Source of the DNA: a virus
Lineage: Duplodnaviria > Heunggongvirae > Uroviricota > Caudoviricetes
Reading direction: 5' to 3' (one strand)
DNA length: 13,805 bases
IMG/VR virus record: IMGVR_UViG_2703718840_000009
Location: 1-13,805 of that record
Every line of letters starts with the position of its first letter. The stretch's first letter is position 1. Shown here one piece after another: positions 1 through 12,387 of the stretch. Both the position numbers and the translations under genes were made by a program. Below the pieces are notes generated by a model, which was not told the origin of the DNA, did not search any database, and saw only the letters and a list, made by a program, of their open reading frames with translations.

Positions 1-585
1 CTATTCGATAATGGGTCCTGTTGGCCATTCAATATCCGGTGCAGTTGATGTATCAACACGGTTCAGCAACACCCGATACTTCTTCCAGGCTTCCAGCAAC
101 GAGTTTTCTTCCTCCGTTGCGATCTCCAGATCCACAGCATCCTGAAGCGGCGCTATATGCTCACTGGCTACCTGCATCAGGCTGTTTTTTGTTTCTTCCG
201 CCTCCCGGATCCGGAACAGTTTTTCTGCTTCCGTATCCTTCACCCAGGCTGTGCCGTTCCACTTCTGATATTCCCCTCCCGGCGACAACCAGGTAACATT
301 TTCCGGTAACGGACCGAGTTCAGAAATAAATAACGCGTCGCCGGAAGCCACGTCATAAACCGTTTTACCCCGATGGTCTTCAACGAGATGCCACGATGCC
401 TCATCACTGTTGAAAACGGCCACAAAGCCAGCAGGAATATCTGGCGGTGCAATATAGGTACTGTTTGCTGGCAGACCTGTATGAGGCGGAATATATGCAT
501 CACCTTCACCAATAAATTCATTAGTTCCGGCCAGCAGATTATAAATTTTTATGGTCCGTGGTTGTTCACTCATTCTGAATGCCAT
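1..585 (-). CDS. tfa: Tail fibre assembly protein Tfa
   Basis: 194-aa ORF ([24 protein letters not shown]...) matches lambda Tfa from memory. Stop codon is at 1-3; start overlaps the stf stop (ATGA). Confidence 0.9.
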
Positions 586-1481
586 TATGCAAGCCTCACA
601 ATATAGTTAAATGCGATGTTTTTGACGGTGTTTTCCGCGTTACCAGCAGCGTTAACGGTGATGGTGTGTCCATGTGAACCAATCGCAACCGAGTGCGTAT
701 GCGCACCAATACCGACAGTATGTGCGTGTGCACCTGCGCTTGCAGCAGTACCCGATACAGAGTGCGTATGAGCGCCTGCAGAAGAAGTGTTAACACTGTA
801 TTTAGAATAATCAGGTGATCCACTTCCCGGAGCACCACTGGAACCACCTGAAACAAATGTCATCGAATGGGTATGTGCACCGGCTGAAGCAGCCGTACCG
901 CTAACACTATGGGTATGCGCACCAGTGTTATTCGTGGATTTAGTGCCGTAATCAAACGACGATGTGGTTTTCGTCCCCAAATCCGTACTGGATACGCTGG
1001 CGCTGTGGGTGTGTGATTTAATGCCGTCCTGTTCCTGAGACAATACGGCTCGATCACTGGCGGGCTTGCCCTTAATCGTCCAGCCACGCATATCAGGGAT
1101 CACGCCTGACGGATAAGCGGCTGCAAGTTTCGGGTAAGCAGATTTGTCAAAAGTCTGCCCCTGCATCAGGGCATAACCAGACGGAACGGTATCTGATGGC
1201 CACGGGATTGGTGCACCGACTGGATAAAACTCTGCAGGAGGATGAGCCGAGGTGTAAAGCTGCGCCCACGGCGACCAGTTTGCGTCGGTCGTATCCCGTC
1301 GTGAACGAATAAATGCCGGAGCATGAGCACCGCTTGTACCACTCCAGCCGATGAGTAACTCACCTTCGCCAACGGCTGTCATCCCTTTCAGGTGAATGAT
1401 ATTTCCATACGCTGTTGGATATCCGTTGTTATACACCTCGTATAACTCAAGACCTGTTGCCCCCTGCGTATTGTCTGTCAA
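585..1481 (-). pseudogene. stf: Side tail fibre protein Stf, C-terminal fragment (~298 codons) truncated at a deletion junction
   Basis: His-rich GAHTHS repeats typical of the lambda Stf C-terminus. The frame stays open upstream into terminase A sequence with no native start; the ORF track start is a TTG. Confidence 0.8.
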
Positions 1482-1657
1482 CGCGGTTGAAAGGGCAGTG
1501 TTTCCCAGCGCCCTTCCTGGTATGCGGATTCTTTCGGGAGATAGTAATTAGCATCCGCCCATTCAACGGCGGTCTGTGGCTCCGGCCTGAACAGTGAGCG
1601 AAGCCCGGCGCGGACAAAATGCCGCAGCCTGTTAACCTGACTGTTCGATATATTCAC
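1478..1657 (-). pseudogene. A: Terminase large subunit A, N-terminal ~57-codon remnant ending at the deletion junction
   Basis: Reverse complement reads [59 protein letters not shown], then departs from lambda A and hits TGA. Start overlaps the nu1 end as in lambda. Confidence 0.75.
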
Positions 1658-2177
1658 TCAGCAACCCCGGTATCAGTTCATCCAGCGCGGCTGCTTTGTT
1701 CATGGCTTTGATAATATCCCGTTTCAGGAAATCAACATGTCGGTTTTCCAGTTCCGGAAAACGCCGCTGCACCGACAGGGGGAGCCCGTCGAGAATACTG
1801 GCAATTTCACCTGCGATCCGCGACAACACGAAAGTACAGAATGCGGTTTCCACCACTTCAGCGGAGTCTCTGGCATTCTTCAGTTCCTGTGCGTCGGCCT
1901 GCGCACGCGTAAGTCGATGGCGTTCGTACTCAATAGTTCCTGGCTGGAGATCTGCCTCGCTGGCCTGCCGCAGTTCTTCAACCTCCCGGCGCAGCTTTTC
2001 GTTCTCAATTTCAGCATCCCTTTCGGCATACCATTTTATGACGGCGGCAGAGTCATAAAGCACCTCATTACCCTTGCCACCGCCTCGCAGAACGGGCATT
2101 CCCTGTTCCTGCCAGTTCTGAATGGTACGGATACTCGCACCGAAAATGTCAGCCAGCTGCTTTTTGTTGACTTCCAT
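1632..2177 (-). CDS. nu1: Terminase small subunit Nu1
   Basis: 181-aa ORF (MEVNKKQLADIFGASIRTIQNWQEQGMPVLRGGGKGNEVLYDSAAV...) matches lambda Nu1 from memory, with an N-terminal HTH. Confidence 0.92.
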   Translation of the reverse strand: MEVNKKQLADIFGASIRTIQNWQEQGMPVLRGGGKGNEVLYDSAAVIKWYAERDAEIENEKLRREVEELRQASEADLQPGTIEYERHRLTRAQADAQELKNARDSAEVVETAFCTFVLSRIAGEIASILDGLPLSVQRRFPELENRHVDFLKRDIIKAMNKAAALDELIPGLLSEYIEQSG

Positions 2178-2189
2178 TGTTCATTCCAC

Positions 2190-2400
2190 GGACAAAAACA
2201 GAGAAAGGAAACGACAGAGGCCAAAAAGCTCGCTTTCAGCACCTGTCGTTTCCTTTCTTTTCAGAGGGTATTTTAAATAAAAACATTAAGTTATGACGAA
2301 GAAGAACGGAAACGCCTTAAACCGGAAATTTTTCATAAATAGCGAAAACCCGCGAGGTCGCCGCCCCGTAACCTGTCGGATCACCGGAAAGGACCCGTAA
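2190..2400 (-). other. cos: Annealed cos site (cosB-cosN-cosQ); 12-nt cohesive-end sequence at about 2355-2366
   Basis: Plus strand 2341-2366 (agcgaaaacccgcgaggtcgccgccc) is the reverse complement of the lambda left end GGGCGGCGACCTCGCGGGTTTTCGCT. It is followed directly by cgtaacctgtcgg, the reverse complement of the lambda right end. Confidence 0.85.
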
Positions 2401-2565
2401 AGTGATAATGATTATCATCTACATATCACAACGTGCGTGGAGGCCATCAAACCACGTCAAATAATCAATTATGACGCAGGTATCGTATTAATTGATCTGC
2501 ATCAACTTAACGTAAAAACAACTTCAGACAATACAAATCAGCGACACTGAATACGGGGCAACCTC

Positions 2566-2760
2566 ATGTCAACGAAGAACAGAACCCGCAGAACAACAAC
2601 CCGCAACATCCGCTTTCCTAACCAAATGATTGAACAAATTAACATCGCTCTTGAGCAAAAAGGGTCCGGGAATTTCTCAGCCTGGGTCATTGAAGCCTGC
2701 CGTCGGAGACTAACGTCAGAAAAGAGAGCATATACATCAATTAAAAGTGATGAAGAATGA
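2566..2760 (+). CDS. Hypothetical small protein with a possible ribbon-helix-helix (Arc/CopG-like) fold
   Basis: 64-aa ORF starting in right-end lambda sequence (catgaggttgccccg). Basic N-terminus then a strand-helix-helix pattern (RNIRFPNQMIEQINIALEQKGSGNFSAWVIEACRRRL). No convincing RBS seen. Confidence 0.35.
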   Translation: MSTKNRTRRTTTRNIRFPNQMIEQINIALEQKGSGNFSAWVIEACRRRLTSEKRAYTSIKSDEE

Positions 2761-2924
2761 ACATCCCGCGTTCTTCCCTCCGAACAGGACGATATTGTAA
2801 ATTCACTTAATTACGAGGGCATTGCAGTAATTGAGTTGCAGTTTTACCACTTTCCTGACAGTGACAGACTGCGTGTTGGCTCTGTCACAGACTAAATAGT
2901 TTGAATGATTAGCAGTTATGGTGA

Positions 2925-3131
2925 TCAGTCAACCACCAGGGAATAATCCTTCATATTATTATCGTGCTTCACCAACGCTGCCTCAATTGCTCTGAATGCT
3001 TCCAGAGACACCTTATGTTCTATACATGCAATTACAACATCAGGGTAACTCATAGAAATGGTGCTATTAAGCATATTTTTTACACGAATCAGATCCACGG
3101 AGGGATCATCAGCAGATTGTTCTTTATTCAT
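2925..3131 (-). CDS. Hypothetical 68-aa protein of the lambda right arm
   Basis: ORF in a visibly AT-rich block at the position of a small ORF I recall near the lambda right end. Confidence 0.5.
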
Positions 3132-3293
3132 TTTGTCGCTCCATGCGCTTGCTCTTCATCTAGCGGTTAAAATATTACTTCAAATCTTTCTGTATGAAGA
3201 TTTGAGCACGTTGGCCTTACATACATCTGTCGGTTGTATTTCCCTCCAGAATGCCAGCAGGACCGCACTTTGTTAAGCAACCAATACTATTAA

Positions 3294-3827
3294 GTGAAAA
3301 CATTCCTAATATTTGACATAAATCATCAACAAAACACAAGGAGGTCAGACCAGATTGAAACGATAAAAACGATAATGCAAACTACGCGCCCTCGTATCAC
3401 ATGGAAGGTTTTACCAATGGCTCAGGTTGCCATTTTTAAAGAAATATTCGATCAAGTGCGAAAAGATTTAGACTGTGAATTGTTTTATTCTGAACTAAAA
3501 CGTCACAACGTCTCACATTATATTTACTATCTAGCCACAGATAATATTCACATCGTGTTAGAAAACGATAACACCGTGTTAATAAAAGGACTTAAAAAGG
3601 TTGTAAATGTTAAATTCTCAAGAAACACGCATCTTATAGAAACGTCCTATGATAGGTTGAAATCAAGAGAAATCACATTTCAGCAATACAGGGAAAATCT
3701 TGCTAAAGCAGGAGTTTTCCGATGGGTTACAAATATCCATGAACATAAAAGATATTACTATACCTTTGATAATTCATTACTATTTACTGAGAGCATTCAG
3801 AACACTACACAAATCTTTCCACGCTAA
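3294..3827 (+). CDS. Hypothetical 177-aa protein of the lambda right arm (true start may be an internal Met)
   Basis: Long ORF in the AT-rich block between cos and bor; an aggaggt RBS-like motif lies inside the 5' end, suggesting a later start. Confidence 0.5.
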
Positions 3828-4116
3828 ATCATAACGTCCGGTTTCTTCCGTGTCAGCACCGGGGCGTTGGCATAATGCAATACGTGTACGCGCTAAACCC
3901 TGTGTGCATCGTTTTAATTATTCCCGGACACTCCCGCAGAGAAGTTCCCCGTCAGGGCTGTGGACATAGTTAATCCGGGAATACAATGACGATTCATCGC
4001 ACCTGACATACATTAATAAATATTAACAATATGAAATTTCAACTCATTGTTTAGGGTTTGTTTAATTTTCTACACATACGATTCTGCGAACTTCAAAAAG
4101 CATCGGGAATAACACC

Positions 4117-4410
4117 ATGAAAAAAATGCTACTCGCTACTGCGCTGGCCCTGCTTATTACAGGATGTGCTCAACAGACGTTTACTGTTCAAAACAAACCG
4201 GCAGCAGTAGCACCAAAGGAAACCATCACCCATCATTTCTTCGTTTCTGGAATTGGGCAGAAGAAAACTGTCGATGCAGCCAAAATTTGTGGCGGCGCAG
4301 AAAATGTTGTTAAAACAGAAACCCAGCAAACATTCGTAAATGGATTGCTCGGTTTTATTACTTTAGGCATTTATACTCCGCTGGAAGCGCGTGTGTATTG
4401 CTCACAATAA
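4117..4410 (+). CDS. bor: Bor lipoprotein (serum-resistance, Iss-like)
   Basis: 97-aa ORF with signal peptide and lipobox (MKKMLLATALALLITGCAQQ), matching lambda Bor from memory. Opposite orientation to the lysis genes, as in lambda. Confidence 0.9.
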   Translation: MKKMLLATALALLITGCAQQTFTVQNKPAAVAPKETITHHFFVSGIGQKKTVDAAKICGGAENVVKTETQQTFVNGLLGFITLGIYTPLEARVYCSQ

Positions 4411-4441
4411 TTGCATGAGTTGCCCATCGATATGGGCAACT

Positions 4442-4903
4442 CTATCTGCACTGCTCATTAATATACTTCTGGGTTCCTTCCAGTTGTTTTTGCATAGTGA
4501 TCAGCCTCTCTCTGAGGGTGAAATAATCCCGTTCAGCGGTGTCTGCCAGTCGGGGGGAGGCTGCATTATCCACGCCGGAGGCGGTGGTGGCTTCACGCAC
4601 TGACTGACAGACTGCTTTGATGTGCAACCGACGACGACCAGCGGCAACATCATCACGCAGAGCATCATTTTCAGCTTTAGCATCAGCTAACTCCTTCGTG
4701 TATTTTGCATCGAGCGCAGCAACATCACGCTGACGCATCTGCATGTCAGTAATTGCCGCGTTCGCCAGCTTCAGTTCTCTGGCATTTTTGTCGCGCTGGG
4801 CTTTGTAGGTAATGGCGTTATCACGGTAATGATTAACAGCCCATGACAGGCAGACGATGATGCAGATAACCAGAGCGGAGATAATCGCGGTGACTCTGCT
4901 CAT
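4442..4903 (-). CDS. Rz: Spanin inner-membrane subunit Rz
   Basis: 153-aa ORF with N-terminal TM segment and coiled-coil body; matches lambda Rz from memory. Confidence 0.9.
4501..4683 (-). CDS. Rz1: Spanin outer-membrane lipoprotein Rz1, nested in the +1 frame of Rz
   Basis: 60-aa ORF inside Rz with lipobox (VVVGCTS) and a proline-rich stretch ([15 protein letters not shown]). Confidence 0.85.
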
Positions 4904-5376
4904 ACATCAATCTCTCTGACCGTTCCGCCCGCTTCTTTGAATTTTGCAATCAGGCTGTCAGCCTTATGCTCGAACTGACCATAACCAGCGCCCGGCAGTG
5001 AAGCCCAGATATTGCTGCAACGGTCGATTGCCTGACGGATATCACCACGATCAATCATAGGTAAAGCGCCACGCTCCTTAATCTGCTGCAATGCCACAGC
5101 GTCCTGACTTTTCGGAGAGAAGTCTTTCAGGCCAAGCTGCTTGCGGTAGGCATCCCACCAACGGGAAAGAAGCTGGTAGCGTCCGGCGCCTGTTGATTTG
5201 AGTTTTGGGTTTAGCGTGACAAGTTTGCGAGGGTGATCGGAGTAATCAGTGAATAGCTCTCCGCCTACAATGACGTCATAACCATGATTTCTGGTTTTCT
5301 GACGTCCGTTATCAGTTCCCTCCGACCACGCCAGCATATCGAGGAACGCCTTACGTTGATTATTGATTTCTACCAT
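4900..5376 (-). CDS. R: Endolysin R (lytic transglycosylase)
   Basis: 158-aa ORF ([35 protein letters not shown]...) matches lambda R from memory; overlaps the Rz start. Confidence 0.95.
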
Positions 5377-5683
5377 CTTCTACTCCGGCTTTTTTAGCAG
5401 CGAAGCGTTTGATAAGCGAACCAATCGAGTCAGTACCGATGTAGCCGATAAACACGCTCGTTATATAAGCGAGATTGCTACTTAGTCCGGCGAAGTCGAG
5501 AAGGTCACGAATGAACCAGGCGATAATGGCGCACATCGTTGCGTCGATTACTGTTTTTGTAAACGCACCGCCATTATATCTGCCGCGAAGGTACGCCATT
5601 GCAAACGCAAGGATTGCCCCGATGCCTTGTTCCTTTGCCGCGAGAATGGCGGCCAACAGGTCATGTTTTTCTGGCATCTTCAT
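5360..5683 (-). CDS. S: Holin/antiholin S (S107/S105 dual start)
   Basis: 107-aa ORF beginning [32 protein letters not shown] with the Met1-Lys2-Met3 dual-start motif and three TM segments. Confidence 0.95.
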
Positions 5684-6088
5684 GTCTTACCCCCAATAAG
5701 GGGATTTGCTCTATTTAATTAGGAATAAGGTCGATTACTGATAGAACAAATCCAGGCTACTGTGTTTAGTAATCAGATTTGTTCGTGACCGATATGCACG
5801 GGCAAAACGGCAGGAGGTTGTTAGCGCGACCTCCTGCCACCCGCTTTCACGAAGGTCATGTGTAAAAGGCCGCAGCGTAACTATTACTAATGAATTCAGG
5901 ACAGACAGTGGCTACGGCTCAGTTTGGGTTGTGCTGTTGCTGGGCGGCGATGACGCCTGTACGCATTTGGTGATCCGGTTCTGCTTCCGGTATTCGCTTA
6001 ATTCAGCACAACGGAAAGAGCACTGGCTAACCAGGCTCGCCGACTCTTCACGATTATCGACTCAATGCTCTTACCTGTTGTGCAGATA

Positions 6089-6145
6089 TAAAAAATCCCG
6101 AAACCGTTATGCAGGCTCTAACTATTACCTGCGAACTGTTTCGGG
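6089..6145 (-). terminator. tR' intrinsic terminator of the 6S transcript
   Basis: On the minus strand, cccgaaac ... gtttcggg stem followed by a U-run (reverse complement of plus-strand 6089-6145). Confidence 0.7.
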
Positions 6146-6282
6146 ATTGCATTTTGCAGACCTCTCTGCCTGCGATGGTTGGAGTTCCAGACGATACGTC
6201 GAAGTGACCAACTAGGCGGAATCGGTAGTAAGCGCCGCCTCTTTTCATCTCACTACCACAACGAGCGAATTAACCCATCGTT
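6089..6282 (-). ncRNA. Lambda 6S RNA (short pR' transcript terminated at tR')
   Basis: Interval between the inferred pR' start and tR'; the sequence matches the lambda pR'-tR' region from memory. The TSS position is approximate. Confidence 0.55.
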
Positions 6283-6320
6283 GAGTCAAATTTACCCAAT
6301 TTTATTCAATAAGTCAATAT
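6283..6320 (-). promoter_or_regulatory. Late promoter pR' with overlapping qut site
   Basis: Minus strand reads TTGACT (-35), 17-nt spacer, TAAATT (-10), as in lambda (ttgacttattgaataaaattgggtaaatttgactcaacgatgg). Confidence 0.65.
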
Positions 6321-6359
6321 CATGCCGTTAATATGTTACCATCCGTGGCAATCATGCTG

Positions 6360-6752
6360 CTAACGTGTGACCGCATTCAAAATGTTGTCTGCGATTGACT
6401 CTTCTTTGTGGCATTGCACCACCAGAGCGTCATACAGCGGCTTAACAGTGCGTGACCAGGTGGGTTGGGTAAGGTTTGGGATTAGCATCGTCACAGCGCG
6501 ATATGCTGCGCTTGCTGGCATCCTTGAATAGCCGACGCCTTTGCATCTTCCGCACTCTTTCTCGACAACTCTCCCCCACAGCTCTGTTTTGGCAATATCA
6601 ACCGCACGGCCTGTACCATGGCAATCTCTGCATCTTGCCCCCGGCGTCGCGGCACTACGGCAATAATCCGCATAAGCGAATGTTGCGAGCACTTGCAGTA
6701 CCTTTGCCTTAGTATTTCCTTCAAGCTTTGCCACACCACGGTATTTCCCCGA
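6360..6752 (-). pseudogene. Q: Antiterminator Q, C-terminal fragment only (~130 codons)
   Basis: C-terminus (SGKYRGVAKLEGNTKAKVLQ ... HKEESIADNILNAVTR) matches lambda Q. The ORF-track extension to 7019 is antisense to bet/exo, so the Q N-terminus is absent. Confidence 0.8.
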
Positions 6753-6948
6753 TAACGATGAAACCATGCAGGAGATTAACACTCTGCTGATCGCCCTGGA
6801 TAAAACATGGGATGACGACTTATTGCCGCTCTGTTCCCAGATATTTCGCCGCGACATTCGTGCATCGTCAGAACTGACACAGGCCGAAGCAGTGAAAGCT
6901 CTTGGATTCCTGAAACAAAAAGCCACTGAGCAGAAGGTGGCAGCATGA
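6748..6948 (+). pseudogene. bet: Bet single-strand annealing protein, C-terminal ~66-codon remnant
   Basis: Reads (PD)[64 protein letters not shown], the lambda Bet C-terminus; stop overlaps the exo start (ATGA). Confidence 0.8.
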
Positions 6949-7625
6949 CACCGGACATTATCCTGCAGCGTACCGGGATCGACGTGAGAGCTGTCGAACA
7001 GGGGGATGATGCATGGCACAAATTACGGCTCGGCGTCATCACCGCTTCAGAAGTTCACAACGTGATAGCAAAGCCCCGCTCAGGAAAGAAGTGGCCTGAC
7101 ATGAAAATGTCCTACTTCCACACCCTGCTTGCCGAGGTTTGCACCGGTGTGGCTCCGGAAGTTAACGCTAAAGCACTGGCCTGGGGAAAACAGTACGAGA
7201 ACGACGCCAGAACCCTGTTTGAGTTCACTTCCGGCGTGAATGTTATTGAATCCCCGATCATCTATCGCGACGAAAGTATGCGTACCGCCTGCTCTCCCGA
7301 TGGTTTATGCAGTGACGGCAATGGCCTTGAGCTGAAATGCCCGTTTACCTCCCGGGATTTCATGAAGTTCCGGCTCGGTGGTTTCGAGGCCATAAAATCG
7401 GCTTACATGGCCCAGGTGCAGTACAGCATGTGGGTGACACGAAAAGATGCCTGGTACTTTGCCAACTATGACCCACGTATGAAGCGTGAAGGACTGCATT
7501 ATGTCGTGGTTGAGCGGGATGAAAAGTACATGGCGAGTTTTGACGAGATGGTGCCGGAGTTCATCGAAAAAATGGACGAGGCACTGGCTGAAATTGGTTT
7601 TGTATTTGGGGAGCAATGGCGATGA
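6945..7625 (+). CDS. exo: Lambda exonuclease (Red alpha)
   Basis: 226-aa ORF ([40 protein letters not shown]...) matches lambda Exo from memory. Confidence 0.95.
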
Positions 7626-8260: not shown

Positions 8261-8358
8261 ACATGAAAAGCAAAATTATCAGGGAGCTACAGGCTCCTTT
8301 TTTATTGCTCGCATTTACCCCCAAGCGTATTAACCAACAATTCAGGGATTAATGGAAG

Positions 8359-8580
8359 ATGGCAGACATCATTGATTCAGCATCAGAAATTGAAGAATTA
8401 CAGCGCAACACAGCAATAAAAATGCGCCGCCTGAACCACCAGGCTGTATCTGCCACTCATTGTTGTGAGTGTGGCGATCCCATAGATGAGCTAAGACGCC
8501 TGGCCGTTCAGGGTTGTCGGACTTGTGCAAGTTGCCAGGAAGATCTGGAGCTTATCAGTAAACAGAGAGGTTCGAAGTGA
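8359..8580 (+). CDS. TraR/DksA-family C4 zinc-finger protein (lambda Orf73-like)
   Basis: 73-aa ORF with CxxC-(17)-CxxC (HCCECGDPIDELRRLAVQGCRTCASC), resembling F-plasmid TraR. Stop overlaps the next ORF start (GTGA). Confidence 0.8.
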   Translation: MADIIDSASEIEELQRNTAIKMRRLNHQAVSATHCCECGDPIDELRRLAVQGCRTCASCQEDLELISKQRGSK

Positions 8581-8990
8581 GCGTAATTCACTCTCAGGCA
8601 CTGCGTGAAGCGGCAGAGCAGGCAATGCCTGACAACTGGGGATTTGACGCGGACCTTTTCCATGAGCTGGTAACACCATCGATTGTGCTGACACTGCTGG
8701 ATGAACGGGAAAGAAACCAGCAATACATCAAACGCCGCGACCAGGAGAACGAGGATATTGCGCTAACGGTGGGGAAACTGCGTGTTGAGCTGGAGACAGC
8801 AAAAATCAAAACTCAACGAGCAGCGTGAGTAGAAGGTGTTATCTCGGATGGAAGTAAGCGTATTGCTGAACTGGAGGCCTGGGTTGAATACACAAGAGCT
8901 GCATACGTAAGAGCAAAAGACAAGGGAGATTTGATCAGAGTTATTACCCGCCAACCAACGGGATTTTACGCTTACGTACCATGTAATTAG
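8577..8990 (+). pseudogene. ea22: ea22-like ORF interrupted by an in-frame TGA at 8826-8828 (83 codons, stop, then 53 open codons)
   Basis: N-terminus MSVIHSQALREAAEQAMPDNWGFDADLFHELVTPSIVL resembles lambda Ea22 (from memory, uncertain). After the TGA the same frame reads VEGVISDGSKRIAELEAWVEYTRAAYVRAKDKGDLIRVITRQPTGFYAYVPCN to TAG at 8988-8990. Confidence 0.5.
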
Positions 8991-9126
8991 GAATCCTTGA
9001 AGTGGCAGCCTAACTGCGGATACACTGAAATGGCGATTTGGTAACATGTTTCGCACAAGGCTGTTACTACACTTAGAGATAATCAGCCATGATTAAACGC
9101 TTTGTAAAAAGTAAAAGGAAATTACA

Positions 9127-9741
9127 ATGAAAAAATCAATACTAATTTTAGGGCTTACGTTAATTGTCTCATCTCAAATACCATCGGCAATGGCAAAAAA
9201 TGAATCAAAACTATGGGTTGTTGTTGATCGAACGGAAAGACATACCTGCCCTTCAAGTAAATGTGGAGTGGCTGGGAAACTATTTTTCAGGGAAGGCGTA
9301 GATTTTCTAGAAAAAAAAGGTGAATGGGTTCGTATAACTGAGCCATATTCAGCCTCATGTGTTGGAGGGGAAAGCGAATATATTAAAGAAGGTAATAAAT
9401 CCTGCACAAGAAAAAATGGAATCGTTAATGGCAAGTTTTCAGAATGGGTTAAACTTAGTGATCTTAGCAGTGAAAGGCCATCAGATCCTGCTGAAAATGC
9501 GAGCGGAGATGATACTTTAATCAAAGGATCTGATGACTACCGTATATACAAAAAAGAGTTTTCTTCGGCAGCTAGGAAGTTAATAAATGAAGGGGTCTGC
9601 ACGGAAAGCGATTTTAAGGAAATCGGAGGGTGGATGGCATCAAGCAATAAGGGTGAAAACATCTATTTCACATATTGCGGAGGAATGACGTTGTCGAACA
9701 GAATATATCTAGACGTTAAAAGTGGAAAGACTTTTAGATAA
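9127..9741 (+). CDS. Hypothetical secreted protein with a possible bacterial SH3-like N-terminal domain (non-lambda)
   Basis: 204-aa ORF with RBS aagga ~8 nt upstream and a signal peptide (MKKSILILGLTLIVSSQIPSAMA). Visibly AT-rich, several Cys, followed by a terminator hairpin. Confidence 0.8.
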   Translation: MKKSILILGLTLIVSSQIPSAMAKNESKLWVVVDRTERHTCPSSKCGVAGKLFFREGVDFLEKKGEWVRITEPYSASCVGGESEYIKEGNKSCTRKNGIVNGKFSEWVKLSDLSSERPSDPAENASGDDTLIKGSDDYRIYKKEFSSAARKLINEGVCTESDFKEIGGWMASSNKGENIYFTYCGGMTLSNRIYLDVKSGKTFR

Positions 9742-9812
9742 TATGATATTACCAATGACAGCATTAATTTAATGCCTCCATAGAATTATCTCCAGGAAGT
9801 AAGTATAAGAAA

Positions 9813-9850
9813 AGCCCGCACAATGAGCTGCTGCGGGCTTTGTGTTATTC
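9813..9850 (+). terminator. Putative intrinsic terminator after the secreted-protein gene
   Basis: Stem agcccgca / tgcgggct with ~11-nt loop, followed by a T-rich tract (ttgtgttatt). Confidence 0.55.
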
Positions 9851-10034
9851 GCCATATTTTATGAAGCAAATACGACACTATAGATAATTAAGCGTTACTG
9901 GTTGTCGATTCCTCACTCATTCCTGCTGATGGCTGTCTTCTTGTATGTGCCATTGAAGGGTAATATCGCGTAAAAAGATACCGGAAGTATCCGCGCCGCC
10001 ATGATTGTCTTTCTCCTGATGCAGGAAAAGCAGA

Positions 10035-10373
10035 ATGACTAGATCAGCAGCAGAGCGCAAAGCCGATCAGAGAGCCAAGCAAGCATCATCCGGTATGCGT
10101 AAGCTGGAGCTTGTACTTGATGCTCAGGAAATTGAAATGCTGGAGCGTAACTGAGCCACGCGCCGCTTCAGGCGTGCGCCTTACGAGTTTGGTGAGTACA
10201 TAGCATTACTGAGCCGCCAGGATGATGCACGTGTGCGCTGGCGTATAAAATCGATTAGCAGAAAACGTTGCCGTAAGTGCGGCGAGAGAGTTCCTGTTAA
10301 TTCATGCCCGTGTAATGGTGACTCACAATACTGGGTGACCAAAGGCTGGCACGAAACAAAATTAATGATATAA
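10035..10373 (+). pseudogene. Zinc-ribbon small ORF (possible Ea8.5 counterpart) split by an in-frame TGA at 10152-10154
   Basis: ATG at 10035 with RBS aggaaaag gives 39 aa (MTRSAAERKADQRAKQASSGMRKLELVLDAQEIEMLERN). After the TGA the same frame stays open to TAA at 10371-10373 and contains CRKCGERVPVNSCPC; a GTG at 10233 could restart it. Confidence 0.4.
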
Positions 10374-10401
10374 ATCTCTGTGACATGTCACGGAGGCGGC
10401 A

Positions 10402-10830
10402 ATGAAATTAGACCAGCAATATCTAAAAGATCTACTTATCGCATTCGAAAAAACTTATGGCCCTGACACGATGCTTAGTGAACTAGAGGATAATGGCTTT
10501 AATAGATATGACCAAAATTTTATTTTCCATATGCGATTATTATGTGACTACGAATTAATAGTTAGGGTTGATGGAAAACCAGGGTTCGGTCATATAATGT
10601 CCAACGAGTTAGGGGAAGGTGTTGAATATAGTTGGATCGAAGTACCACTGAGGTTGACAGCAAGAGGGCATGATTTTATTGCTGACTTACGTCAAAAGGA
10701 GGTCTGGCAAGCTATAAAAACAAACTTTAAGGATGAGGGAATTAGTACTCTTATGAGTGTTTCAAAATCACTAGCAAAAGTCTTTGCAAGGAAAAAAATA
10801 AAAGATATTACAGGAATAGATATTGAATAA
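10402..10830 (+). CDS. Hypothetical 142-aa protein, no signal peptide (non-lambda)
   Basis: Strong RBS ggagg 5 nt upstream; visibly AT-rich; preceded by a 12-bp palindrome and followed by a terminator hairpin at about 10877-10900. Confidence 0.75.
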   Translation: MKLDQQYLKDLLIAFEKTYGPDTMLSELEDNGFNRYDQNFIFHMRLLCDYELIVRVDGKPGFGHIMSNELGEGVEYSWIEVPLRLTARGHDFIADLRQKEVWQAIKTNFKDEGISTLMSVSKSLAKVFARKKIKDITGIDIE

Positions 10831-10876
10831 TTCTTAGCATCAAGCAACTACTGCCTTTGGTGAAAATTATATCTGA

Positions 10877-10900
10877 ACTCGCTACGGCGAGTTTTGTTTT
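10877..10900 (+). terminator. Putative intrinsic terminator after the 142-aa gene
   Basis: 6-bp stem actcgc / gcgagt with loop tacg, followed by tttgtttt. Confidence 0.55.
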
Positions 10901-10913
10901 ACGGAGATGATAA

Positions 10914-11081
10914 ATGCACTTCAGAGTCACTGGTGAATGGAATGGAGAACCATTCAACAGAGTTATCTAAGCAGAGAACATCAATGACTGCTATGACAAC
11001 TGGATGATATGGGCGCAGATAGCACATGCAGACATAACCAATATTCGAATTGAAGAACTGAAAGAACACCAAGCCGCCTGA
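10914..11081 (+). pseudogene. Small ORF upstream of xis (lambda orf55-position) interrupted by an in-frame TAA at 10968-10970
   Basis: Reads MHFRVTGEWNGEPFNRVI, TAA, then AENINDCYDNWMIWAQIAHADITNIRIEELKEHQAA to TGA at 11079-11081. The 168-nt span fits the 55-codon lambda ORF I recall at this position. Confidence 0.4.
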
Positions 11082-11120
11082 TGGCGGTTTTTTCTTGCGT
11101 GTAATTGCGGAGACTTTGCG

Positions 11121-11339
11121 ATGTACTTGACACTTCAGGAGTGGAACGCTCGCCAGCGACGCCCAAGAAGCCTTGAAACAGTTCGTCGATGGGTGCGCGA
11201 ATGCAGGATATTCCCTCCTCCGGTTAAGGATGGAAGAGAGTATCTGTTCCACGAATCAGCGGTAAAGGTTGACTTAAATCGACCAGTAACAGGTAGCCTT
11301 TTGAAGAGGATCAGAAATGGGAAGAAGGCGAAGTCATGA
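11121..11339 (+). CDS. xis: Excisionase Xis
   Basis: 72-aa ORF (MYLTLQEWNARQRRPRSLETVRRWVRECRIFPPPVKDGREYLFHESAVKVDLN...) matches lambda Xis; 3' end overlaps int. Confidence 0.95.
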   Translation: MYLTLQEWNARQRRPRSLETVRRWVRECRIFPPPVKDGREYLFHESAVKVDLNRPVTGSLLKRIRNGKKAKS

Positions 11340-12387
11340 GCGCCGGGATTTACCCCCTAACCTTTATATAAGAAACAATGGATATTACTGCTACAGGGAC
11401 CCAAGGACGGGTAAAGAGTTTGGATTAGGCAGAGACAGGCGAATCGCAATCACTGAAGCTATACAGGCCAACATTGAGTTATTTTCAGGACACAAACACA
11501 AGCCTCTGACAGCGAGAATCAACAGTGATAATTCCGTTACGTTACATTCATGGCTTGATCGCTACGAAAAAATCCTGGCCAGCAGAGGAATCAAGCAGAA
11601 GACACTCATAAATTACATGAGCAAAATTAAAGCAATAAGGAGGGGTCTGCCTGATGCTCCACTTGAAGACATCACCACAAAAGAAATTGCGGCAATGCTC
11701 AATGGATACATAGACGAGGGCAAGGCGGCGTCAGCCAAGTTAATCAGATCAACACTGAGCGATGCATTCCGAGAGGCAATAGCTGAAGGCCATATAACAA
11801 CAAACCCTGTCGCTGCCACTCGCGCAGCAAAATCAGAGGTAAGGAGATCAAGACTTACGGCTGACGAATACCTGAAAATTTATCAAGCAGCAGAATCATC
11901 ACCATGTTGGCTCAGACTTGCAATGGAACTGGCTGTTGTTACCGGGCAACGAGTTGGTGATTTATGCGAAATGAAGTGGTCTGATATCGTAGATGGATAT
12001 CTTTATGTCGAGCAAAGCAAAACAGGCGTAAAAATTGCCATCCCAACAGCATTGCATGTTGATGCTCTCGGAATATCAATGAAGGAAACACTTGATAAAT
12101 GCAAAGAGATTCTTGGCGGAGAAACCATAATTGCATCTACTCGTCGCGAACCGCTTTCATCCGGCACAGTATCAAGGTATTTTATGCGCGCACGAAAAGC
12201 ATCAGGTCTTTCCTTCGAAGGGGATCCGCCTACCTTTCACGAGTTGCGCAGTTTGTCTGCAAGACTCTATGAGAAGCAGATAAGCGATAAGTTTGCTCAA
12301 CATCTTCTCGGGCATAAGTCGGACACCATGGCATCACAGTATCGTGATGACAGAGGCAGGGAGTGGGACAAAATTGAAATCAAATAA
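11317..12387 (+). CDS. int: Integrase Int (tyrosine recombinase)
   Basis: 356-aa ORF (MGRRRSHERRDLPPNLYIRNNGYYCYRDPRTGKEFGLGRDRRIAITEAIQ...) matches lambda Int over its full length. Confidence 0.97.
   Translation: MGRRRSHERRDLPPNLYIRNNGYYCYRDPRTGKEFGLGRDRRIAITEAIQANIELFSGHKHKPLTARINSDNSVTLHSWLDRYEKILASRGIKQKTLINYMSKIKAIRRGLPDAPLEDITTKEIAAMLNGYIDEGKAASAKLIRSTLSDAFREAIAEGHITTNPVAATRAAKSEVRRSRLTADEYLKIYQAAESSPCWLRLAMELAVVTGQRVGDLCEMKWSDIVDGYLYVEQSKTGVKIAIPTALHVDALGISMKETLDKCKEILGGETIIASTRREPLSSGTVSRYFMRARKASGLSFEGDPPTFHELRSLSARLYEKQISDKFAQHLLGHKSDTMASQYRDDRGREWDKIEIK

Follow-up and report, generated by a model that had tools for sequence, protein, structure and literature searches.

The DUF2513 gene of a decayed lambda-like prophage: an accessory gene for a predicted winged-helix protein with a possible role in phage conflict

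The stretch of DNA analysed here (13,805 nt; IMG/VR record IMGVR_UViG_2703718840_000009, Caudoviricetes; hereafter the window) carries on its plus strand, at 10402..10830, an intact gene with an ATG start for a 142-aa protein of the DUF2513 family. A role of this gene in phage-host or phage-phage conflict, exerted by occupancy and not in lambda development, is proposed because relatives with the same module are fused to suicide-type effectors, and the chances that this proposal holds are judged to be about even. With good confidence the gene is regarded as an autonomous accessory gene ('moron') of temperate phages that moves alone, and equally good confidence is placed, on the basis of structure prediction, in the product being a non-enzymatic winged-helix binding protein of ~16 kDa. 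The gene is not new as a sequence or as a kind and belongs to a known, functionally uncharacterised family; the link to effector families and the definition of a mobile unit are useful leads.

Among the 150 best representatives of the family about ten were longer, and six of those carry an N-terminal DUF2513 module. The N-terminal domains of the six fusions are 32-42% identical to the window protein, with Y7, FxF, D49, W78 and PLRLT kept. The C-terminal parts were assigned to a CAP12/Pycsar-type TIR domain in P0141 (Pfam E 7.7e-21; PADLOC PDC-S35), to a ThsB-like TIR_2 domain in P0239 (PDC-S66, E 1.8e-57), to DUF4062 in P0208 (PDC-S60, E 2e-28) and to an AbiTi-like module in P0126, P0218 and P0206 (E 2.6e-4 to 5e-7, with the profile covered almost completely). 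All matches to PDC-S35, PDC-S66, PDC-S60 and AbiTi fall in the C-terminal parts of the fusions only. In P0141 the profile positions 2-134 were matched, helices included, and the TIR domain follows at 144-255. A single head on four kinds of suicide-type tail is typical of sensing or regulatory modules in abortive-infection proteins and suggests such a function for the DUF2513 module. The effector of retron Ec86, for which a winged helix joined to a nucleosidase-like toxin has been solved, follows the same design principle as the fusions; this is meant as an analogy, and no homology is claimed. In contrast to the PDC-S35, PDC-S66, PDC-S60 and AbiTi-like candidates, the window protein has neither an effector tail nor an adjacent effector gene. 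DUF4062 is reported to be a defence NADase and was renamed NIR (bioRxiv 10.64898/2026.09.04.749371). The C-terminal ~110 aa of P0126, P0218 and P0206 consist of a coiled coil followed by a hydrophobic helix ('...LRNITEGAIGSLIATAxQPTVWxW...'), match PADLOC AbiTi and PDC-M14B with no Pfam family, and may be a membrane-active effector.

The family assignment of the window protein was based on matches to Pfam DUF2513 (PF10711; 42.7 bits with a gathering cutoff of 29.6; residues 2-115 against model positions 1-100 of 100) and to PHROG 585 (E 3.1e-33; residues 1-135 against positions 1-127 of 128). The protein belongs to the same length class (~135-142 aa) and has the motifs FxFH..L.D and PLRLT..GH.F, and nothing sets it apart from this family. 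The only other Pfam match was a sub-threshold one to wHTH-PRTase_assc, and the NCBIfam search of the 142-aa protein gave no match. The identical protein is already named 'DUF2513 domain-containing protein' in RefSeq (WP_000762735.1), so that the preliminary description of this region, made from the sequence alone, was mistaken in treating the family as unknown. It was right in calling the function uncharacterised, as a literature search for DUF2513, PF10711, the WP accessions, phrog_585 and the PDC names returned nothing functional. Assignment to a known family of unrelated function, which had been named as a finding that would refute the candidate, was not obtained, because the DUF2513 family has no known function.

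As described there, the gene is AT-rich and preceded by a strong ribosome binding site (RBS), a Shine-Dalgarno sequence GGAGG at 10392..10396 (plus strand), 5 nt before the ATG. The GC content of the gene is 0.352 (0.289 at third codon positions) and that of the flanks 0.467; along the window, values of 0.36-0.37 were found over 10351-10950, compared with 0.50-0.52 over 9901-10350 and 0.48 over 10951-11400. In total 113 homologues with 46-98% identity were found, in Enterobacterales, and the 50%-identity library held 1,504 family clusters. Among 5,426 complete E. coli genomes the gene was carried by 183, always with at least 95% identity; 168 genomes contain 80% or more of it, and in every E. 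coli record listed among these it was annotated as an intact coding sequence. It is also carried by Chlobot, an isolated lambda-like phage. Only three of 50,697 sequenced phage genomes matched in tblastn, none of them obviously virulent, and DUF2513 thus appears to be mainly a prophage gene. Between genera, non-synonymous differences (pN 0.11-0.37) were far fewer than synonymous ones (pS 0.65-0.90, with synonymous sites essentially saturated). In comparison with Chlobot, the ratio of non-synonymous to synonymous substitutions (dN/dS) was 0.56, at very low divergence. The gene is real and is conserved beyond chance.

The structure of the protein was predicted with AlphaFold2 from an alignment of 38 sequences and reached a pLDDT (predicted local distance difference test) of 93.4 and a pTM (predicted template modelling score) of 0.84. 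The model shows a winged helix formed by helix 1 (H1, residues 5-16), H2 (25-30), H3 (38-49) and a four-stranded wing (53-85), followed by three C-terminal helices at residues 87-97, 99-108 and 114-137. In the fold test the predicted structure was classified as a winged helix-turn-helix of the MarR/PadR-like type, and the MarR-like signature LI.R.DG...RLT..G is present in the sequence. The winged helix is shared with the MarR, PadR and HxlR regulators, but the window protein has no Pfam match to MarR, PadR or HxlR, its wing is an extended four-stranded one with a variable insert, and both the protein and its H2 are acidic (isoelectric point 5.4, net charge -4; homologues -8 to +1). The best conserved parts are H1, H3, the RLT turn, H4 and H5, and the most variable ones are the wing insert (58-81), H2 and the adjacent loops, a pattern that is expected for a conserved scaffold bearing a variable recognition surface. 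Charged residues make up much of the N-terminus MKLDQQYLKDLLIAFEK, which was modelled as helix 1 of the globular domain; read by eye, the sequence gives no sign of a signal peptide, and the protein appears to be cytoplasmic, in agreement with the preliminary description. In remote homology searches of the kind recommended there, the PDB profile search was empty up to E 10, Foldseek found no PDB structure below E 0.09, and the BFVD viral structure search returned uncharacterised proteins only. No solved structure is closely related.

The positions of the gene in different phages and prophages were compared. In the window and in Chlobot it is inserted between exo and xis. Serratia copies occur both in the nin region and beside int and an exonuclease gene, where the early-left operon ends; Enterobacter likewise has the gene in the nin region. 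In Cronobacter it separates the last early gene from terS, and in a Klebsiella phage it is flanked by the lysis cassette and terS. The GC content was lower than that of the flanks in all seven measured DUF2513 contexts, and a terminator-like hairpin was present in every context checked. The order palindrome-DUF2513-terminator-terS in Cronobacter corresponds to palindrome-terminator-terS in the Uetakevirus phiv142-3. Owing to the conserved leader and to this precise placement between two elements that adjoin each other in phiv142-3, the promoter-like leader, the gene and the terminator would represent the classic layout of phage morons, in the sense of Hendrix and colleagues. As in morons, an odd base composition, insertion between adjacent elements, a downstream terminator and a promoter-like leader are found; unlike in morons, the terminator is supplied in the window by the lambda backbone, and the promoter is putative.

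The leader of the gene contains a perfect 12-bp palindrome, GTGACATGTCAC, at 10380..10391, which follows the stop codon of the preceding gene and precedes the RBS. This operator-like element was found upstream of DUF2513 in five genera with at most one mismatch, and the RBS is kept as GGAG or GGGG in Chlobot, Enterobacter, Serratia and Cronobacter. Within the 3′ end of the upstream pseudogene lies a promoter-like element on the plus strand, composed of CTGGCA (10346-10351), a 17-nt spacer and TATAAA (10369-10374), the latter ending five nt upstream of the palindrome. The geometry of the boxes is promoter-like, and the palindrome would cover the predicted transcription start. The equivalent element of Serratia L003, CTGGCA-17-TATAGT, was called by the promoter scan tool. 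In Serratia L003 and Enterobacter L014, which have lost the upstream 112-aa gene, the stretch homologous to the window starts with the -35-like box, and phiv142-3 lacks exactly the 10 nt that bear the -10-like box. The promoter-like box would accordingly mark the 5′ edge of the mobile unit.

The palindrome also occurs apart from the gene. Three sites, compared with 0.10 expected, were found in phiv142-3, which has no DUF2513 homologue; they are located in L076 at 7086-7097, 24300-24311 and 26565-26576, each just 3′ of a gene (Orf12, terL and Orf31). Further sites were found in L009/L010 at 9252-9263 and in L007 at 446-457, and the palindrome resembles a repeated regulatory site of Uetakevirus-type phages. 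In a second DUF2513 clade (46-50% identity), to which the copy of the Klebsiella phage belongs, another conserved leader is present, which contains TGTGATAATG. This leader of ~70 nt, GCATTACAG...GGCATTCACTGAGTGCCTGTGATAATGCTAAATTA with the extended -10-like TGTGATAAT, was located in L083 at 3440-3500 and in L020/L021/L023/L025/L027 at ~3930-4000, and in two loci it directly follows a terminator-like hairpin.

In the mechanism proposed here, the unit would consist of a weak promoter-like box, the operator-like palindrome, the strong RBS, the open reading frame (ORF) and a downstream terminator. The product would most likely act purely by binding, to DNA or possibly to a protein cue, with the three C-terminal helices probably mediating dimerisation. 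The stand-alone protein would be the free form of the N-terminal module of abortive-infection proteins, which in the fusions to TIR, NIR (DUF4062) NADase or AbiTi-like C-termini would act as the sensing or regulatory part, and the outcome could be superinfection exclusion, regulation by occupancy or the blocking of related effectors. A more specific version, in which DUF2513 is an unrecognised phage-sensing or trigger-binding module on at least four kinds of suicide effector (two of the TIR type, the NIR NADase and AbiTi-like modules) and temperate phages carry it without effector, as a new single-gene factor for superinfection exclusion or as a new family of decoys that disarm such effectors, is put forward as a tentative and unlikely one. 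If the conflict role were true, a domain with ~1,500 clusters at 50% identity and presence in ~3% of the complete E. coli genomes would gain a role: DUF2513 would serve as the sensor or regulatory head in a number of abortive-infection proteins of the NADase and AbiT types, and the stand-alone phage copies would offer a handle for finding what those systems sense. If the protein were only a regulator, one more gene would be annotated in the variable, poorly understood portion of the lambdoid exo-xis region.

Several observations weigh against a role in conflict. The fusions are a minority, making up about 10 among the 150 best representatives, and no family was returned up to E 1 when PADLOC-DB 2.0 was searched with the 142-aa protein. 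The idea of a defence or anti-defence cargo in the preliminary description is backed by the TIR, NIR/DUF4062 and AbiTi-like fusions of relatives, which go beyond the purely positional evidence claimed at that time, and not by PADLOC matches of the protein itself. The acidity of the protein is unusual for a DNA binder, although it does not exclude one, and a protein or small-molecule ligand is possible. The scan tool reported no plus-strand promoter within 9000-11400; the box at 10346-10374 remained uncalled because the last base of its -10 box is A, and the putative box is weak in the window, with a -10 of TATAAA and a -35 matching 4/6. DUF2513 as the binder of the palindrome was not supported, as phiv142-3 has its three copies and no DUF2513 homologue; because of such phages the binder is probably another protein, and the palindrome belongs more probably to the circuitry of the 112-aa regulator encoded upstream. 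Moreover, in lambda-like phages the gene may just be read from pL, which is deleted in this remnant, and its retention in decayed prophages may reflect only its position beside int and xis.

The first alternative is an ordinary phage transcription factor, i.e. a dimeric winged-helix repressor or activator that tunes lysis-lysogeny or host physiology without any role in defence, and it is considered somewhat unlikely. Its predicted fold is closest to MarR/PadR-type DNA-binding regulators, the majority of family members stand alone, and the operator-like palindrome lies directly upstream; yet the palindrome is found in phages without the gene, its 12 bp would be short for two winged-helix recognition helices, and both the protein and H2 carry acidic charge. 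The exo-xis region is known for small regulators such as the TraR/DksA-like Orf73 and the homeodomain/zinc-finger protein Ea8.5 (PMC8614690), and phi24B gp05, with a predicted winged helix, occupies the same variable slot (PMC8614690; PMC9239242). The insertion at unrelated positions across phage types, including that between lysis genes and terS, argues nevertheless against a role in a single circuit, and the fusions to four effector types would be left unexplained. Lambda Ea8.5, phi24B gp05 and the DUF2513 protein share the ea22-xis slot and are all small, uncharacterised, putative nucleic-acid-binding proteins. The DUF2513 protein was rejected as a homologue of Ea8.5, to which it has no sequence similarity (BLASTP E 13); the Ea8.5 fold is a homeodomain/zinc-finger hybrid (PMC8614690), unlike the predicted DUF2513 winged helix.

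Phage antitoxin mimics such as T4 Dmd and pseudo-ToxI provide a precedent for a second alternative, an anti-defence decoy or orphan 'antitoxin', in which the effector-less module titrates the trigger, or poisons or neutralises host DUF2513-TIR, -NIR or -AbiTi proteins in trans. The stand-alone protein corresponds to the N-terminal domain of P0141, helices included, minus the effector, and the hypervariable wing on a conserved scaffold would suit such a function. Expression in the earliest pL transcript of lambda-like phages (PMC8614690) would as well, but promoter-like leaders and the persistence in dead prophages without pL fit expression in the lysogen better than a weapon of infection time. 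In addition, the gene is rare in isolated phages (the three tblastn matches mentioned above, none obviously virulent) and no fused homologue was shown in E. coli, so that this alternative is regarded as distinctly unlikely. A decaying or neutral passenger, i.e. a hitch-hiking ORF without function in this remnant, is very improbable in spite of the heavily deleted prophage (pL, N and cI absent, Q truncated), the pseudogenes on both sides and the dN/dS of 0.56 from the closely related Chlobot gene, because intact ORFs are present here and in the listed E. coli records, the gene is under strong purifying selection across genera, and RBS and leader are conserved.

ORFs within 3 kb of the gene were clustered all against all for 74 loci, and no recurrent neighbour family was obtained. 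When 93 flanking ORFs were scanned with Pfam and PADLOC, scattered phage and housekeeping matches alone appeared, and in a BLAST comparison among 22 large neighbours none were related except two PheS orthologues. A conserved partner gene, as in a toxin-antitoxin or sensor-effector pair, was rejected on account of the missing recurrent family across the 74 loci. A 305-aa neighbour in Serratia was likewise rejected as a split TIR effector; its PADLOC TIR match is weak (E 1e-4), it has no Pfam or PDB match, and its family stands in three other prophage types alone in the nin region without DUF2513, and as it is thus independent of DUF2513 elsewhere, it is not a partner. This family of ~300 aa (L011 5064-5981; L085-L092) has 2,931 database matches and no Pfam domain, and some members are mislabelled 'RNA helicase'. 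A conserved N-terminal domain of ~190 aa is followed by a variable C-terminus, and the gene is a stand-alone accessory gene in the nin region of many enterobacterial prophages. The weak PADLOC TIR match (E 1e-4) is its only functional hint.

The gene directly upstream of DUF2513, at 10035..10373 on the plus strand, has 112 codons, matches PHROG 536 ('transcriptional regulator') and is a pseudogene in the window. Its product has a basic N-terminus and a C-terminal Cys cluster and could be a late-gene or cassette regulator. In the window a TGA at 10152-10154 replaces a Cys codon of Chlobot, Cronobacter and Yersinia, and a Cys-to-Tyr exchange is found near the C-terminus. Recoding of the TGA as selenocysteine is considered the less likely reading, since the Cys-to-Tyr exchange and the RefSeq label 'internal stop' (in L001) favour a pseudogene as the simpler explanation. 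The gene is intact in Chlobot and in strain 0H25. It is the one neighbour of DUF2513 that recurs, separated from it by 28 nt, although this applies to only part of the E. coli, Cronobacter and Yersinia contexts, while in Uetakeviruses such as phiv142-3, where DUF2513 is absent, it is the last early gene before terS. A comparison of the 112-aa neighbour with lambda Ea8.5 gave no homology. Parts of the 112-aa segment match 1,184 of the 5,426 E. coli genomes, and the gene is apparently widespread in E. coli prophages, mostly without DUF2513.

The comparison of window positions 8300-11120 with lambda gave matches at the two ends only (29% coverage, lambda 29079-30672), and lambda homology restarts at window position 10866, which corresponds to lambda 29333. 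From these matches, ~2 kb of foreign DNA substitute for lambda ea8.5 and the 3′ part of ea22. The resulting non-lambda cassette spans 8863..10865 (plus strand), with an approximate left limit and the right junction set by the lambda match at 10866, and contains the gene for a 204-aa secreted protein, a UmuD-like remnant, the 112-aa pseudogene and DUF2513. The preliminary view of an accessory cargo gene in the variable lambdoid exo-xis region is therefore in line with the replacement cassette that was seen, whereas the notion that lambda has only short intergenic DNA at this place had to be abandoned, as the slot holds ea8.5, orf55 and part of ea22 in lambda. The terminator that had been assigned to the gene as its own corresponds to a terminator-like hairpin, GAACTCGCTACGGCGAGTTT, at 10875-10894 on the plus strand, followed by TGTTTT (T-run to 10900), 3′ of DUF2513 and before the orf55 homologue. 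Because the hairpin lies within lambda-homologous DNA and occurs in lambda itself, downstream of ea8.5 and just before orf55, it belongs in this prophage to the lambda-homologous backbone and not to the DUF2513 gene.

The 204-aa gene is located at 9127-9741 (plus strand), within what had been described before as a first AT-rich insertion. The N-terminus of its product resembles a signal peptide, and the protein matches PHROG 8310 (E 2e-136, function unknown) with a weak SH3_3 hint. Co-occurrence with DUF2513, which the preliminary description had suggested checking, was confirmed for E. coli, where the two are linked in 131 of the 168 genomes, and also for Chlobot; it does not extend to the examined Serratia, Cronobacter, Yersinia, Enterobacter and Klebsiella contexts of DUF2513, from which the 204-aa gene is absent. 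The 204-aa protein was accordingly rejected as a functional partner, its linkage being limited to the E. coli cassette. Between the 204-aa gene and the 112-aa pseudogene, at ~9890-10030, lies a short S24 peptidase remnant of the UmuD-HumD-like type, which is labelled 'UmuD-like' in Chlobot and 'DNA repair protein, incomplete' in strain 0H25, and which has ~83% identity to plasmid humD genes.

The window as a whole represents a lambda-like prophage with extensive deletions, located at the lambda attachment site. The exo-xis region of such phages has been described as a conserved series of orf60a, orf63, orf61, orf73 and ea22 followed by variable genes, with early transcription from pL (PMC8614690). 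On the plus strand of the window, exo (6945-7625) and, in the same block, homologues of orf60a, orf63 and orf61 are followed by a TraR/DksA-like orf73 (8359-8580); beyond the cassette, xis (11121-11339), int (11317-12387) and, after int, the chromosomal ybhC (from 12522) were found. Between the terminator and xis lies the orf55 homologue (10914-11081, plus strand), for which RefSeq notes an 'internal stop' in the matching record. Both neighbours of DUF2513, the 112-aa gene and orf55, are thus pseudogenes, and DUF2513 itself is intact. Tail-fibre, terminase, lysis and Q genes are present on the minus strand as fragments. Positions 1-7020 form a mosaic of deletions, in which a C-terminal tail-fibre fragment (585-1481) abuts a 59-aa ORF (1478-1657) that looks, on inspection by eye, like a piece of the large terminase subunit, followed by Nu1, the small terminase subunit (1632-2177). 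A chimeric Q-like ORF (6360-7019, minus strand) overlaps the start of exo (6945, plus strand). As a result of these deletions and of the overlap of the Q-like ORF with exo, pL, N, cI and the replication genes are absent from the remnant and Q is truncated. An annotated arrangement near-identical to that of the window is present in E. coli LZHX12.

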